From Terriglobia bacterium (GTDB lineage Bacteria; Acidobacteriota; Terriglobia; JAJPHL01; JAPKYU01): 64,000 nucleotides of DNA. The stretch is from contig CBDCVK010000008.1 of assembly GCA_965223005.1 (NCBI GenBank), forward strand, positions 64,001 through 128,000. Reading direction: 5' to 3'. Made by a program: the position numbers and the translations under genes. Each line of letters opens with the position of its first letter. The stretch's first letter is position 1. Of this stretch, positions 1 to 21,810 are shown piece by piece. The notes under the pieces were generated by a model. The model ran no database searches and was not told the origin of the DNA. It saw only the letters and a program-made list of their open reading frames with translations.

Positions 1-643
1 CCTGCGCCAGGGCCACAATGTCGGGATGTGGCGCGTAGGCCTCCGGAGTGGCCACGCGGAGCTGGGCGCCGGCCAGCGCCCCGCACAGCAGCAGTGAATG
101 CGCCACGTTATTGCCATCCCCGACGAACCCCAGGCGCGCCTGGCTCAGGTTCCCGAAAATCTCTTGCAGGGTGAAGTAGTCGGTGAGCGACTGGCAGGGG
201 TGGAACACCTCACTCAGGCCGTTGATGATCGGCACCGAGGAGAAGCGGGCAAACTCCTCCACTGTGGCGTGGGAAAAGGTACGAAGGGCCACGGCGTCCA
301 CCCAGCGAGCCAGGTTGCGTGCCACGTCACAAACCGGCTCACGGTCGGGGATGCGCTGTTGCCCCGTGTCCATGAACACACTCTTACCGCCCAGCATCTT
401 CATGCCCAGCTCGAAGGTGAAGCGGGTGCGCAGGGAGCGCTTCTCAAAGATCACTGCCAGCGACCGCCCTTCCAGCGCGCCGGCGTAGCGGCGCGGCTCG
501 GCCTTGACAGCGGCGGCCAGTCGGAATAGTTCGGTGACGGTCGCCGGGCTCAGGTCGTCATCGCGGATCAGGTGGGCCGGAACCTGCACCGGAACCGATA
601 AGGGCGCGGCACTCGAAACAGCGGGGGCGGCATCTTTTCGCAC
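1..643 (-). CDS. argF: Ornithine carbamoyltransferase (3' end runs off the window)
   Basis: Manual minus-strand translation: ...LAVIFEKRSLRTRFTFE...GLSEVFHPCQSLTDYFTL...LGFVGDGNNVAHS. These are the carbamoyl-phosphate SxRT, HPCQ and GDGNN motifs. Probable GTG start at 643 with GGAG upstream. Confidence 0.9.
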   Translation of the reverse strand, partial: MRKDAAPAVSSAAPLSVPVQVPAHLIRDDDLSPATVTELFRLAAAVKAEPRRYAGALEGRSLAVIFEKRSLRTRFTFELGMKMLGGKSVFMDTGQQRIPDREPVCDVARNLARWVDAVALRTFSHATVEEFARFSSVPIINGLSEVFHPCQSLTDYFTLQEIFGNLSQARLGFVGDGNNVAHSLLLCGALAGAQLRVATPEAYAPHPDIVALAQ

Positions 644-17188: not shown

Positions 17189-18625
17189 ATGGACCCAGAA
17201 TCATTGGCGTTGCAGATTCACCGGCGGACGTTCCTGCGCTACGGCATTTCAGGACTGGGCCTGGTGGCGTTGAATTCATTACTCGATGCGAGGCTGTTGG
17301 CTTCGGAAACGGCCCTGGGAACCCAGGGGTCGCAAGGAGTTGTGGACCCGCTACATCATCCGGCGAAAGCCAAGCGCGTTATCTTTCTTTATCAGGCGGG
17401 CGGACCATCGCACCTCGAGACCTTCGATTACAAGCCAAAGCTCGCCGAAATGAACAGCAAACCAATGCCCGAGTCCTTCACCAAGGGTCAACAGCTGGCC
17501 CAGCTGCAAGGCCAGCCGCTGGTTTGCTTTGGACCGCAGCACGAGTTCAACAGGTTCGGCAAATCGGGACTCGAGATCTGCGGGTTGTTTCCACACATCG
17601 GCAGCGTCGCAGATGATGTTTGCATTATTCGCTCGATGTGGACGGAACAGATTAACCACGATCCGGCCCATACCTTGATGAACACTGGAGCGATCGTCGC
17701 GGGCCGGCCGAGCATGGGATCATGGTTGTTGTATGGGCTCGGGTCGGAAGCCAACGATTTGCCGGGTTTCGTGGTACTGGCCTCAAAGGGTAAGGGTGGG
17801 CAGATGCAGCCGATTGCGGCACGGCAATGGGCCTCCGGATTCCTGCCCGGCAAATTCCAGGGTGTAAAGTTCAACTCCATCGGGGACCCCGTACTATACA
17901 TCCAGAACCCGCAGGGCTTGAATGCCAGCATCCAGCACGCTTCGGTGCAGGCGATTCAGGCCATCAACAAGATCCAACACGAAGCGCGGCGGGATCCGGA
18001 GGTTCTTACGCGGATTTCGCAGTATGAGATGGCATTCAAGATGCAGACTAGCGTGCCCGACCTCATGGACATGAGCAAGGAGCCACCCCATATCCTGGAC
18101 ATGTATGGCGCCAAGCCAGGGGATGGCTCTTTTGCGTCCAATTGCATGCTGGCGCGGCGCCTGGCGGAGCGCGGCGTGAGGTTTATCCAGCTCTATCACC
18201 GGGACTGGGACCACCATGGCGCGGTTAAAGACAACGTTGCCATCAAGGCGCAGGAAACGGACCAGGCTACTGCCGCGCTGATCAAGGATTTGAAGCAGCG
18301 AGGCATGTTTGAGGATACGTTGGTCGTTTGGGGAGGCGAGTTTGGTCGGACACCCATGTCCCAGGGTGACAACGGACGCGACCATCACATCAAGGGCTTC
18401 TCGTTCATGCTGGCGGGTGGTGGGATTAAGGGCGGCATCACGTACGGAGCCACGGACGAGCTGGGCTATGCGGCGGTGGAAAAACCCGTGAGCGTCCACG
18501 ACTTCCACGCCACCATGCTGCACCTACTGGGGATCGATCACCTGCGCATGACGGTCAAGTTCCAGGGCTTGGACGCACGGCTGACGGGGGTTTCTGGTGA
18601 GGTCCTGAAGGAAATTCTGGCTTAG
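17189..18625 (+). CDS. DUF1501 domain protein (Tat-like N-terminus)
   Basis: HRRTFL, GGPSHLETFDYKP, ARRLAERGVRFIQL, WGGEFGRTP, GRDHH; follows the DUF1553 gene as is typical. Confidence 0.9.
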   Translation: MDPESLALQIHRRTFLRYGISGLGLVALNSLLDARLLASETALGTQGSQGVVDPLHHPAKAKRVIFLYQAGGPSHLETFDYKPKLAEMNSKPMPESFTKGQQLAQLQGQPLVCFGPQHEFNRFGKSGLEICGLFPHIGSVADDVCIIRSMWTEQINHDPAHTLMNTGAIVAGRPSMGSWLLYGLGSEANDLPGFVVLASKGKGGQMQPIAARQWASGFLPGKFQGVKFNSIGDPVLYIQNPQGLNASIQHASVQAIQAINKIQHEARRDPEVLTRISQYEMAFKMQTSVPDLMDMSKEPPHILDMYGAKPGDGSFASNCMLARRLAERGVRFIQLYHRDWDHHGAVKDNVAIKAQETDQATAALIKDLKQRGMFEDTLVVWGGEFGRTPMSQGDNGRDHHIKGFSFMLAGGGIKGGITYGATDELGYAAVEKPVSVHDFHATMLHLLGIDHLRMTVKFQGLDARLTGVSGEVLKEILA

Positions 18626-18699
18626 TCGGGCCAGCCATATACCTCAATCTCAAAGGGCAGAGCCAATACTGCTTTGCAATTCCATTGGACAGAAGGTCC

Positions 18700-18729
18700 T
18701 TGACAGCGGTAGAAGCCCTAAGGGAAAAT
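18700..18729 (+). promoter_or_regulatory. Putative sigma70 promoter for the Cys-leader/sulfite reductase transcript
   Basis: TTGACA (18700-18705), 18 bp, GAAAAT (18724-18729). The leader ATG at 18736 lies 7 nt after the -10 end. Confidence 0.5.
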
Positions 18730-18735
18730 CACTTC

Positions 18736-18834
18736 ATGGTGCAGTTCGGCCGGAGAGAGTTAAGGCTTTGTTGCCCGACGCCGGGATGTTGTTGCCCGTG
18801 CGGGCGGCTCTCCGGCGGACGGTTCGTGTCGTAG
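18736..18834 (+). CDS. Cys-rich leader (attenuator) peptide MVQFGRRELRLCCPTPGCCCPCGRLSGGRFVS
   Basis: Manual translation: 32 codons with 6 Cys within 11 residues, upstream of a terminator and the sulfite reductase gene. Confidence 0.75.
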   Translation: MVQFGRRELRLCCPTPGCCCPCGRLSGGRFVS

Positions 18835-18861
18835 CTTGTAGCCTAAGTTATCATCCAGACT

Positions 18862-18901
18862 GACCCGCCGTCGAGAGATCGGGCCTCTCGGGCGGGTTTT
18901 T
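18862..18901 (+). terminator. Intrinsic terminator (attenuator) hairpin
   Basis: GACCCGCC-gt-CGAGAG-loop-CTCTCG-GGCGGGTT followed by TTT; ends 46 nt before the reductase ATG. Confidence 0.75.
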
Positions 18902-18947
18902 CGTTCCGCGCGATCGAGCTGAGCGGAAGCAGACGGGGTACGGAATC

Positions 18948-21209
18948 ATGAAAGTCTCTAACGCACGTTGGAAAGAACGGCTTGCCGGGAAGATGCCGGA
19001 TAGCTTGGCCCGCGAAGTGGACATCTTCGAAACGGAGATAGATTTGCGAAGACAGGGCAAAGTGGAAGAAAAACTCTTTGCGGAAACTCGGCTTCGCAGA
19101 GGTGTCTACGGACAACGCTATGACAACGGCCACCGGCACGATGGGCAGAAAGTCCAGGATCTCGCCTATCCTTCCAGACAACTGACCAAGGGCCCGAATA
19201 CGGTGTGGGATGCTCCCGGAATGCAGCGCATCAAGGTCCCTTATGGAGGACTTAATGCAGAGCAACTAGAGACTCTGGCGGATTTGGCCGAGGAATATTC
19301 CGATGGCATTGCGCATGTCACGACCCGGCAGGACTTCCAACTCCACTATGTCCAGATTGACGATACGCCCGCTTTGATGCGGCGGCTGGCCGCGGTCAAG
19401 ATCACCACCCGCGAGGCTTGTGGCAACTCGGTGCGCAATGTGACCGCTTGCCCCTACGCCGGCGTTTGCCCGGACGAGGCGTTCGACGTCACCCCGTATG
19501 CCCGCGCCCTTTCCCGATTCTTGCTGGGACATCCCGACGCGCAGAACTTCGGCAGGAAGTTCAAGCCGGCCTTCAGCGGCTGCCGGGACCAAGGCTGTGG
19601 CCTTACCAACATGCACGATCTGGGGTTGATCGCAGTCAAACGGAACGGTGGCGGAAAAGAAGAACGCGGATTTGAAATGTACGTCGGCGGTGGATTGGGG
19701 GCCGTTCCCTATCAGGCGAAGCTGTTTGACTCCTTCCTGCGGCCGGAGGAGCTTCTGCCGACAGCTCAGGCAATTGCCAGGGTCTTCGCGCGACAGGGGG
19801 AGAAGAAAAACCGCAATCGGGCCCGTATCAAATTCCTGGTCCATGACCTGGGGATTGAGAAATTCAAGGAGCTGGTGCTCGAGGAGCGCAAGAATCTGCC
19901 TCCGGATGCCCGATGGAACGATTCCCTGGAGGGCGCTGAGCAGGAGTCGGAAGGAGCTCTCCGACCCGGAGGGAAACTGCCGGCCGGAGGCTCGGAAGAC
20001 TTCCGGCGCTGGGTGGAAACCAATACTCGCCGGCAGAAGCAGGAGGGATATGTCGTGGCCACGGTGGCGCTTCCCCTGGGAGATCTCACCTCGCTACAAC
20101 TCCGTGCTTTGGCCGACATCGTCCGCCGGTTCACAAAAGAAACCATCCGCACGACTGTGGAACAGAATTTCGTTCTCCGCTGGATCAGTCAAAGCGATTT
20201 GCCCGGACTCTATCGAGCATTAAAGGAGGCCGGCCTGGCAGAGCCGGGCGCGGGCACCCTCGTGGACATTGTCGCCTGCCCCGGCACCGATACCTGCAAA
20301 CTCGGGATTTCCTCCTCGCGCGGGCTGGCCGCCGAGTTGCGGAAACGACTGGCCGAGAAATGCTTTCAACTGGATGAGGCCGTTCAAAGCCTACACATCA
20401 AAGTCAGCGGCTGCTTTAACAGCTGCGGGCAGCACCACGTCGCCGACCTGGGCTTTTACGGCGTCAGCCGCAAGCTGGCGGGCCATGCCGTACCGCACTT
20501 TCAGGTCGTTCTCGGCGGTGAGTGGACCCACAATGCCGGCTCCTATGGCCTGGCCATTGTAGCGATCCCCTCCAGAAGAATTCCGGAAGTGGTCACCCGC
20601 ATTACCGAACGCTATGTCTCCGGCCGAAAGAACGGAGAAGGCTTTCAGGAGTTCATTAAGCGAATCGGCAAGGCGGAATTAAAGAAAATGCTGGAAGATC
20701 TTGCCCAGCCACTCGACCCGGCGACCGATCGCTCCTTTTTCCAGGACTGGGGTGACCCCCGGGAGTACAGCCTGGGCGACCTCGGCATCGGCGAATGCGC
20801 CGGGGAGGTGGTGAGCTCTATCGAGTTCGGCCTGGCGGCCGCAGAACGCGAAGTCTTCGAGGCGCAGGTGGCGCTGGAAAGTGGCGAAACGGAGAAGGCC
20901 AGAGAGACGGCGTATCAATCCATGCTCCATGCTGCCAAAGCACTCGTCCGAATCGAGTACCTGGATGTTTCCGACGACTCGGATAAGATTGTCCAGCAAT
21001 TCCGCACCCGCTTCTACGACACGCAGAAGTTCTTCGATCCTTTTGCCGGCGGTAAGTTCGCCCACTACCTGTTTGCCGCTCACCGAAAGGCCGAGGATCC
21101 ATACACGCCGGAGGCCACCCACCACTTGATCGAGGAGGCGCAACTGTTCATCGAGGCTTCGCACAGTTGCTACAGCCGCATGGCCACCCCGGCTGGCGCC
21201 AGGGCGTAG
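18948..21209 (+). CDS. Siroheme-[4Fe-4S] sulfite/nitrite reductase with C-terminal HEPN-like helical domain
   Basis: RLRRGVYGQR, HVTTRQDFQ, ACGNSVRNVT, CPGTDTC...SGCFNSCGQH; C-terminal AYQSMLHAAKAL segment is HEPN-like. Confidence 0.88.
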   Translation: MKVSNARWKERLAGKMPDSLAREVDIFETEIDLRRQGKVEEKLFAETRLRRGVYGQRYDNGHRHDGQKVQDLAYPSRQLTKGPNTVWDAPGMQRIKVPYGGLNAEQLETLADLAEEYSDGIAHVTTRQDFQLHYVQIDDTPALMRRLAAVKITTREACGNSVRNVTACPYAGVCPDEAFDVTPYARALSRFLLGHPDAQNFGRKFKPAFSGCRDQGCGLTNMHDLGLIAVKRNGGGKEERGFEMYVGGGLGAVPYQAKLFDSFLRPEELLPTAQAIARVFARQGEKKNRNRARIKFLVHDLGIEKFKELVLEERKNLPPDARWNDSLEGAEQESEGALRPGGKLPAGGSEDFRRWVETNTRRQKQEGYVVATVALPLGDLTSLQLRALADIVRRFTKETIRTTVEQNFVLRWISQSDLPGLYRALKEAGLAEPGAGTLVDIVACPGTDTCKLGISSSRGLAAELRKRLAEKCFQLDEAVQSLHIKVSGCFNSCGQHHVADLGFYGVSRKLAGHAVPHFQVVLGGEWTHNAGSYGLAIVAIPSRRIPEVVTRITERYVSGRKNGEGFQEFIKRIGKAELKKMLEDLAQPLDPATDRSFFQDWGDPREYSLGDLGIGECAGEVVSSIEFGLAAAEREVFEAQVALESGETEKARETAYQSMLHAAKALVRIEYLDVSDDSDKIVQQFRTRFYDTQKFFDPFAGGKFAHYLFAAHRKAEDPYTPEATHHLIEEAQLFIEASHSCYSRMATPAGARA

Positions 21210-21234: not shown

Positions 21235-21810
21235 ATGGAACTCCAGCACGTCAACGTAAAGCTCTACGTGGAGAATCCAAAGGGAACTGACCTAGAGGTG
21301 TTGATTCCAGTCTTTCACAACTGGATCCAGGATCAGGTGTGTGAGGAATTGTTGATCGATGTGGCCGATTACCGGCACGTTCATCGGGGTCCGGGAGTGG
21401 TCCTGATCGGCCATGAAGCCAATTACAGTCTGGACAATGCAGATAACCGGCTGGGCGTTCGCTACAATCGCAAGGCTCCCATAGCCGGCAGCAATCAAGA
21501 CCGCTTCGTGCAAGCCACCCGGGCGGCGCTGACCGCCTACAGACGTCTAGATTCCGATCCGCGGATTCAGGGAAAATTTCTTCTGAACGGTCAGGAGCTG
21601 GAGCTATTTGTGAACGACCGACTGCTGGCTCCGAACCTTGAGAAAACCTACCAGGCTGCGAAGCCGGAACTGGAAGGCTTTTTCGGGAAACTCTTTGCGG
21701 GAAGCGGTTACTCGGTGGCGCACAATGGCCACCCTCGGAATCTGTTCTCGGTCGAAGTCCAGGCTTCCAGGCCCTTCACAGCAAGCGAATTGCTCAAGAA
21801 CCTATCCTGA
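21235..21810 (+). CDS. Hypothetical protein co-transcribed with the reductase
   Basis: 191-aa ORF 25 bp downstream; protein-like composition (IPVFHNWIQ, LIDVADYRHVHRGPGV). Confidence 0.75.
   Translation: MELQHVNVKLYVENPKGTDLEVLIPVFHNWIQDQVCEELLIDVADYRHVHRGPGVVLIGHEANYSLDNADNRLGVRYNRKAPIAGSNQDRFVQATRAALTAYRRLDSDPRIQGKFLLNGQELELFVNDRLLAPNLEKTYQAAKPELEGFFGKLFAGSGYSVAHNGHPRNLFSVEVQASRPFTASELLKNLS

Follow-up and report, generated by a model that had tools for sequence, protein, structure and literature searches.

What is the function of a very short, cysteine-rich open reading frame (ORF) that lies directly in front of a sulfite reductase gene in an acidobacterial genome? The question is raised by a stretch of 64,000 nucleotides from the metagenome-assembled genome of an uncultured Terriglobia bacterium (GenBank assembly GCA_965223005.1, contig CBDCVK010000008.1, positions 64,001 to 128,000 of the forward strand), which is referred to here as the window and numbered from its first letter. 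In a preliminary description, made from the letters of the window, it was proposed that this small ORF (sORF), together with the hairpin and T-run that follow it, forms a cysteine-sensing, ribosome-dependent attenuator. The interpretation is supported by counts over orthologous reductase loci, by the occurrence of similar leaders at other sulfur genes, by competing pairings within the leader, and by ribosome masking at the first Cys codons. We consider it very probable that the element acts as a trp/his-type attenuator of transcription, in which the ribosome senses charged tRNA-Cys ahead of sulfite reductase.

The leader region starts beyond the end of a DUF1501 gene at 18625 and continues on the plus strand with a promoter-like site, the sORF, the hairpin and the reductase gene (Table 1). 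All elements named in the preliminary description are present. The sORF at 18736-18834 has six Cys codons in 11 codon positions (starting at 18769, 18772, 18787, 18790, 18793, and 18799), and TTGACA-18-GAAAAT at 18700-18729 is the only promoter-like site within 18500-19100 (0.2 expected). The GC-rich hairpin with its T-run occupies 18862-18901; the hairpin proper (18862-18898; arms ACCCGCC/GGCGGGT and GAGAG/CUCUC) has a folding energy of -22.8 kcal/mol and is followed by five T at 18897-18901. As in classical attenuators, an intrinsic terminator consisting of a hairpin and T5 is found between the sORF and the reductase gene. The T-run is separated by 46 nucleotides from the reductase ATG, which is outside the hairpin. 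Both of the competing pairings that had been pointed out, GCCGGAGAG (18749-57) with CTCTCCGGC (18808-16) and CGGCGG (18813-18) with CCGCCG (18865-70), are complete, and the antiterminator is larger than had been described, with additional pairing of CTCTC (18808-12) with GAGAG (18873-77). Two further observations were made in this region. A second hairpin (TTCCGCGC..GCGGAA, approximately 18903-18931 on the plus strand), which has no T-run, is located between the terminator and the ribosome-binding region of the reductase gene. Immediately 5' of the -35 box (window position 18681, plus strand), a 13-nucleotide insertion, CCATTGGCCAATC, is found at two loci of the same genus (L002, L003) and in one RNA-library contig; it is a duplication of the local CCATTGG motif.

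If the sORF had a regulatory role, one would look for it in front of orthologous reductase genes, as was suggested in the preliminary description. Orthologues were gathered from 41 related genomes and from one genome per species (75 loci), and the comparison was based on 74 distinct loci with a full-length orthologue and at least 300 nucleotides upstream (L031 was left out as it shares its contig with L003, and L087 and L092 because less than 300 nucleotides precede them). Nearly all related loci come from Acidobacteriota, and the Acidobacteria-like nature of the genome, as surmised in the preliminary description, is thereby correct. An sORF of at most 70 amino acids with a start codon and at least four Cys in 12 codons was found at 62 of the 74 loci, compared with 2 of 74 on the reverse strand and 22 of 1480 dinucleotide shuffles. 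When frames were read from stop to stop, 65 of the 74 loci have at least four Cys in 12 codons, including the frameshifted L048, and a hairpin with a T-run begins 16-50 nucleotides past the stop codon in 63 of these 65 Cys-rich leaders, so that the outcome was positive for both the sORF and the terminator. Six Cys in 12 codons were not reached in any dinucleotide shuffle of the upstream regions, in which the maximum was five, seen once in 1480. The sORF is kept in the same-genus genomes G001 and G002, and poly-Cys sORFs (e.g., MRGKSHLRRIMCCCCCCCV) also accompany reductase homologues that are more distant, from other families of Terriglobia.

Outside the Cys run, the peptides differ widely in length and sequence. 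Among the leaders of the 65 loci, 239 of 345 Cys codons are TGT (69%), versus 44 of 714 (6%) in the adjacent reductase genes. This bias could be explained by selection for a wobble-read, presumably slower codon or by a constraint on RNA structure, and it fits either. Most loci have TTGAC[AT]-16..18-TAnnnT before the sORF, and of the 51 well-matching loci, 48 have their first in-frame start codon 6-15 nucleotides past the -10 hexamer (6 in the window). Because the start codon is so close to the -10 hexamer, the sORF is probably leaderless or nearly so, with a predicted transcription start site (TSS) at or just before its ATG. In one large subgroup (L033-L049 and similar loci, e.g., L039), the reductase start is approximately 140 nucleotides away from the terminator. 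The intervening sequence has the conserved blocks CTGCTGTAnAGT and ATGGAGGCGAAG and may contain a second promoter or a further regulatory element.

Co-variation among the pairing segments was examined in two ways. In a MAFFT alignment of 63 leaders, 82.6% of the terminator cells are paired, versus 34-51% when the pairing is slid, and the co-variation score of the terminator (0.178 vs 0.139 +/- 0.010) was matched by 0 of 500 shuffles. RNAalifold returned only the terminator core from this alignment. For the antiterminator, an alignment-free test over 101 leaders was carried out, in which the upstream segment prefers the terminator 5' arm of its own leader (double-centred energy -1.32 kcal/mol; 0 of 3000 permutations). 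The preference persists when the set is reduced to 40 leaders that represent distinct arms (-1.68 kcal/mol; 0 of 3000 permutations), and it disappears when the upstream segments are reversed (973 and 1965 of 3000 permutations as low). The antiterminator of classical attenuators is thus found here both as a pairing in the window and as an own-arm preference across the 101 leaders. Compensatory pairs are illustrated by CCGACG/CGTCGG, CTGGCG/CGCCAG, and CCGGCTG/CAGCCGG, and the window itself has the matching set CGGCGG/CCGCCG/GGCGGG in place of the GTGG/CCAC/GGTGGG seen elsewhere. Where the leader has its common form, the 5' arm pairs with a conserved ..GCGCCGNNGTGTGGRGG.. near the 3' end of the sORF, a strand that codes for the conserved 'AP.CGG' motif. 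At L061, a stop codon directly follows the Cys run, and the GCGCCGACGTGTGG segment is retained though untranslated. The persistence of this strand beyond the stop codon indicates a constraint on the RNA level.

Leaders of this type are not confined to sulfite reductase. A strict pattern modelled on the common leader form, TGTTGT-N55-85-CCCACC-N13-31-GTGGGTTTT, was found in 85 of 401 Terriglobia genomes (3 of the 85 are marked unpublished), whereas the backward-read control gave 0. We examined 40 loci, namely 30 of the listed strict-pattern matches and 10 further places in genomes with several matches. A poly-Cys sORF is present in all 40, and at 33 the first downstream ORF carries a sulfur-assimilation domain: NIR_SIR at 12 loci, PAPS_reduct at 6, Rhodanese at 6, TauE at 5, ATP-sulfurylase at 3, and siroheme-synthase domains at 1. 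Outer-membrane barrel or porin domains were found on the first downstream ORF at three loci, and no family at four, possibly due to wrong ORF calls.

The genome under study has a second leader outside the window, with three Cys and the peptide VIDLASSFLSSCCSPPMCRGG. It has a promoter-like site (TTGCAA-17-TACTCT) and a terminator (GCCCGCCCGG..ATGGGCGGGC followed by TTTT, -19.9 kcal/mol), and it precedes a gene pair for a TauE permease and a PAPS reductase (CysH). Across the whole 3.2-Mb genome, the sORF of the window is the sole one of at most 60 amino acids that combines at least five Cys in 12 codons with a terminator-like site. At a threshold of four Cys, the scan gave 277 sORFs of this size, mostly alternative frames of genes, of which seven have a terminator-like site; the second leader was missed by this threshold and was located via gene families. 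The best other match of the scan, VSAACCCCCCASIRL on contig C3, was rejected as an alternative frame of a 99-amino-acid ORF. In this genome, the 420 nucleotides preceding the ATP sulfurylase gene, the start of which is uncertain, showed no leader.

Both leaders of this genome share the terminator core CCCGCC/GGGCGGG (window 18863-18897; G000:C2), and nearly all other Terriglobia leaders, before different operons (loci L106-L145), have CCCACC/GGTGGG. Paralogous leaders within a lineage also share the C-terminal tail of the peptide, e.g., ..SSGAGRL... These shared cores and tails look like the result of concerted evolution or of a three-way pairing constraint. A more far-reaching explanation, which we consider rather doubtful, would be a shared trans-acting constraint (a stem-recognising factor or a nascent-peptide effect) or a mobile, gene-converting cassette, making up a class-wide 'cysteine ribulon' that goes beyond classical attenuation. 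In other acidobacterial classes the strict pattern was found in 0 of 229 genomes, although it is too narrow to show absence. In one of these classes, a poly-Cys sORF is present at 4 of 24 reductase loci (L173, L178, L182, and L184, fragments of split matches, were omitted from the count), and two of these leaders have a hairpin with a T-run, which is lacking at L163 and L172. The same CCCACC core is found at L159 of this class.

How could the leader act as a switch? The 1:2 hairpin, formed by segments 1 and 2 (18747-18818), has an energy of -37.1 kcal/mol, and all nine pairs of segment 1 with CTCTCCGGC are standard. The alternative 2:3 structure (18806-18879, -29.1 kcal/mol) contains 11 standard pairs of segment 2 with 18865-18877. 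The effect of a ribosome was modelled by folding the transcript as far as the terminator loop while a footprint of 29 nucleotides was kept unpaired. In the window, the occupancy of the terminator 5' arm by upstream partners is 0.86 with the A site at the first or second Cys codon, 0.34 at the third, and 0.01 at the stop codon. Among 63 leaders, the mean occupancy is 0.64 with a stalled ribosome, 0.33 with the ribosome at the stop codon, and 0.47 without a ribosome. At 45 of the 63 loci, the occupancy is higher by at least 0.2 when the ribosome is stalled on the Cys cluster than when it is at the stop codon, and the reverse holds at 4 of 63. Masking of the ribosome at 18769 reduces the probability of the 1:2 pairing in the window to 0.00-0.01, and masking at 18772 reduces it to 0.01 on the truncated transcript but leaves it at 0.58 on the full-length one.

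The following mechanism is proposed. Transcription would start at the ATG at 18736 or just before it, and the 32-codon leader would be translated by a ribosome. When cysteine is plentiful, the ribosome would reach the TAG codon at 18832, segment 1 (18749-57) would pair with segment 2 (18808-18), the terminator (18863-18897) with its U-run would form, and RNA polymerase would halt ahead of the reductase gene. With Cys-tRNA in short supply, the ribosome would stall on the Cys codons, chiefly on the first pair (18769-74), with its footprint covering segment 1. Segment 2 would then be available to capture the 5' arm of the terminator as soon as it is made, the terminator would be blocked, and transcription would read through into the sulfite reductase gene and the ORF that follows it.

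A number of results weigh against this interpretation. One of them comes from the masking itself. The preliminary description had asked for folding with and without ribosome-masked segments, and the expected contrast was seen between the first Cys codons and the stop codon (0.86 vs 0.01), but with the ribosome at the later Cys codons the folding still allows the 1:2 pairing. In the window, these codons (18787-18799) are located between segments 1 and 2, and equilibrium folding with a ribosome masked there still allows both the 1:2 pairing and the terminator (terminator probability 0.92-0.99). Because masking at the later codons still permits these structures, the first two Cys codons are the only ones for which the folding model is clean, unless a ribosome within the loop would block the 1:2 pairing sterically. 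The truncated transcript of the window is also ambiguous without a ribosome, with a 5'-arm occupancy of 0.64. Three tests of pairing gave little or nothing. In the MAFFT alignment, 74.3% of the antiterminator pairs are formed, and 252 of 500 shuffles scored as high, i.e., there is no co-variation beyond shuffles; this column-wise count is uninformative, since the register differs between subgroups and there is little variation in the core. A strict test for 6-nucleotide complements, which is too rigid, was only two-fold enriched (20 of 100 vs 194 of 2000), and the duplex energy was weak against mononucleotide shuffles (median z -1.06). The overall fold of 18730-18950 is not unusually stable either (z -1.25; 21 of 200 shuffles as good).

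The comparative and transcript data have their own weak points. The orthologous loci are mutually related, and the counts given above overstate their independence. The leader is lacking at 9 of the 74 loci (L004, L006, L007, L008, L054, L057, L062, L066, and L099), one of which, L004 (G003), belongs to the same genus as the window. Four metatranscriptome runs partly cover 18300-19800, though as contigs only, which are uninformative on transcript start, transcript end and attenuation. Identical pieces of RNA contigs (X16) are found over the reductase coding region at 18988-19146, 19287-19452, and 19703-19800, and one 3.7-kb RNA contig of a relative spans the entire 18300-19800 region.

At L004, the promoter-like site is kept together with a remnant, GTG AGG CTA TGT TGA, and there is no terminator. 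The leader has decayed in some lineages, as at L004 and L048, and the frameshift in the otherwise whole leader of L048 may be an assembly error. L006, L007, and L008, which represent one genus of another Terriglobia family, have no Cys sORF and share a different conserved leader approximately 130 nucleotides before the reductase ATG, in which a near-palindrome, TTGCGAATTTTGCAA, adjoins a -10-like box, TATAGAAT. This arrangement suggests protein-mediated control in that family, 0 of 31 genomes of which showed the strict leader pattern.

Alternative explanations should be weighed against attenuation by a terminator. The sORF could sense cysteine through stalling and yet have its output in translation initiation, mRNA stability, or Rho-dependent termination, as in the poly-Cys sORFs of mycobacteria. 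We regard this as unlikely, since a hairpin and T-run follow 63 of 65 leaders at a fixed distance, the reductase ATG lies well past the T-run and outside the hairpin, and the upstream segment co-varies with the terminator 5' arm. Three points are in its favour: the mycobacterial system is reported to rely on sequestration of the ribosome-binding site (RBS) without a terminator (bioRxiv 10.1101/834739), two of the four poly-Cys leaders of the other acidobacterial class have no hairpin with a T-run, and the terminator of the window is followed by the second hairpin without a U-run.

It is less likely still that the sORF is a gene in its own right, which encodes a Cys-rich peptide, either metal- or redox-active or a precursor, has its own promoter and terminator and is a mere neighbour of the reductase gene. 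A promoter-like site and a terminator are indeed present, parts of the peptide other than Cys are conserved (e.g., CCC..AP.CGG), and the gap of approximately 140 nucleotides between terminator and reductase in one orthologue group leaves room for a separate promoter. However, the non-Cys part is kept as nucleotides where it is untranslated (L061) and matches the terminator 5' arm, the peptide is otherwise highly variable in length and sequence outside the Cys run, the leader points into a sulfur-assimilation gene at 33 of 40 loci, and the gap from T-run to ATG in the window is as short as 46 nucleotides. Finally, a chance ORF in GC-rich intergenic DNA next to an ordinary terminator is hardly credible, in spite of the 277 Cys-rich sORFs in the genome, mostly alternative gene frames, and of an overall fold that is not unusually stable, because the controls are low (reverse strand 2/74, shuffles 22/1480, backward pattern 0/401 genomes) and the element is conserved across families and operons, comparative counts that already contradict it.

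Returning to the terminator-type attenuator, its predicted target is a NirA-family sulfite/nitrite reductase hemoprotein of 753 amino acids (Table 1). The best NCBIfam match of the protein is 'NirA family protein', under the equivalog cut-off, and the regulated gene thus belongs to the pathway of the amino acid that would be sensed. In G017, G025, G029, G033, and G037, the first ~60 reductase residues are matched by a short frame of its own, directly upstream of the main match, with one in-frame TAA in three cases, which suggests that the N-terminal part of the reductase is split or differently started in these genomes. The reductase gene is followed after 25 nucleotides by a conserved ORF of 191 amino acids, for which no Pfam or NCBIfam match and no PDB relative were found. 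The start of the same ORF (MELQHVN.. / MQHLSVK..) is found just 3' of the reductase gene in L003, L004, L007, L009, and L010. The ORF is probably in the same operon as the reductase; because of its recurrent position it is probably also co-regulated, and it may be an unknown partner in sulfite reduction.

Table 1. Positions of the leader elements, of the genes that follow them, and of the second leader in the same genome
Feature	Position	Strand	Remarks
Promoter-like site TTGACA-18 nt-GAAAAT	18700..18729	+	-10 hexamer ends 6 nt before the sORF ATG
Leader sORF, 32 codons + TAG, peptide MVQFGRRELRLCCPTPGCCCPCGRLSGGRFVS	18736..18834	+	Stop codon TAG at 18832
Segment 1, GCCGGAGAG	18749..18757	+	Predicted anti-antiterminator strand; partner is segment 2
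Segment 2, CTCTCCGGCGG	18808..18818	+	Alternative partners: segment 1 or terminator 5' arm (antiterminator)
Segment 3, terminator 5' arm ACCCGCC..GAGAG	18863..18877	+	Sequence and folding
Segment 4, terminator 3' arm CTCTC.GGCGGGT + T-run 18897-18901	18885..18901	+	Sequence and folding
NirA-family sulfite/nitrite reductase hemoprotein, 753 aa, regulated gene	18948..21209	+	Pfam NIR_SIR 5.9e-57, NIR_SIR_ferr 1.7e-39
Conserved 191-aa ORF MELQHVNVKLYVEN..., no known family	21235..21810	+	25 nt 3' of reductase
Second leader of this genome, VIDLASSFLSSCCSPPMCRGG, 3 Cys	G000 contig C2 ~172440-172660	-	Outside the window

Leader-peptide attenuators are classically represented by trpL, hisL, leuL, thrL, pheL, and ilvL of E. 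coli and Salmonella. The present leader shares with them a short leader ORF rich in codons for the end product, four segments that pair as 1:2, 2:3, and 3:4, an intrinsic terminator ahead of the first structural gene, and target genes for the synthesis of the amino acid in question. It differs from the classical examples in its amino acid, cysteine, in its host, Acidobacteriota, and in that one leader type serves several sulfur-assimilation operons. Unlike the classical leaders, it also appears to begin at or within a few nucleotides of the TSS, which would leave no room for a Shine-Dalgarno sequence, and in the window segment 1 does not contain most of the Cys codons, which lie in the loop that joins it to segment 2. 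Judged from sequence features, the leader agrees with classical attenuators in the points compared, with the exception of the disruption of the 1:2 pairing at the later Cys codons. Rfam gave 3 matches for the window region 18000-19500, all far under the gathering score, and no match for 12 leader loci apart from one tRNA.

Three other kinds of cysteine leaders have been reported. In mycobacteria, leaderless poly-Cys sORFs were described, and the characterised case is reported to be translational, with a duplex that sequesters the RBS and no terminator (Canestrari et al., bioRxiv 10.1101/834739). The common features would be an unannotated poly-Cys sORF as first cistron, probably leaderless, a ribosome-based sensing of cysteine, and several cysteine-related operons each with its own sORF (the 'ribulon' of the authors). 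Unlike that case, nearly every leader here is followed by a hairpin with a U-run, consistent with a terminator/antiterminator switch, and no sequence relationship was seen between the present leaders and the mycobacterial sORFs. In Rhodobacterales, the uORFC-8-2 motif upstream of cysS was predicted to be a ribosome-mediated transcription attenuator (Brewer et al. 2021, PMC8632094). It likewise combines Cys codons in an upstream ORF with a terminator stem and U-run, but its Cys codons are just two, in tandem at about positions 14-15, and it precedes cysS in Alphaproteobacteria, with cysteinyl-tRNA synthetase and not sulfate assimilation under its control, whereas six Cys in two clusters precede sulfite reductase here; in the literature found, a Cys upstream ORF of the terminator type was predicted previously only for cysS in Rhodobacterales (PMC8632094). 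In Actinobacteria, candidate Cys leader peptides were proposed for cys/cbs operons, and these are reported to have no terminator hairpins, with Rho-dependent termination suggested instead (Seliverstov et al. 2005, PMC1262725). Short ORFs with Cys runs near the stop codon, upstream of cysteine biosynthesis operons, are common to those leaders and to ours. For Acidobacteria, no description of a cysteine attenuator was found in a full-text collection with few subscription journals, and none from Acidobacteria-like genomes was known in the preliminary description.

Most likely, the locus represents a leader-peptide attenuator of the terminator type, specific for cysteine and at the head of a sulfur-assimilation regulon in Terriglobia, with a textbook mechanism that is unreported for the phylum in the literature found. 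Acidobacteriota are a dominant phylum in soils, and how they regulate sulfur assimilation is essentially undescribed; according to a 2010 survey, almost no predicted attenuator of this phylum had an assigned function (PMC2965389). If the proposed mechanism is true, cysteine would join the amino acids under terminator-type leader-peptide attenuation, and many unannotated small ORFs would be flagged by their poly-Cys runs. The leader would also point to sulfur-assimilation genes whose function is unknown, e.g., the 191-amino-acid ORF, and could provide a compact cysteine-responsive switch for engineering. For the organisms themselves, it would amount to a simple, protein-free regulon, in which one leader design reads the supply of Cys-tRNA through the speed of the ribosome and switches on the genes for sulfite reductase, PAPS reductase, ATP sulfurylase, TauE-type permeases, rhodanese, and siroheme synthase.

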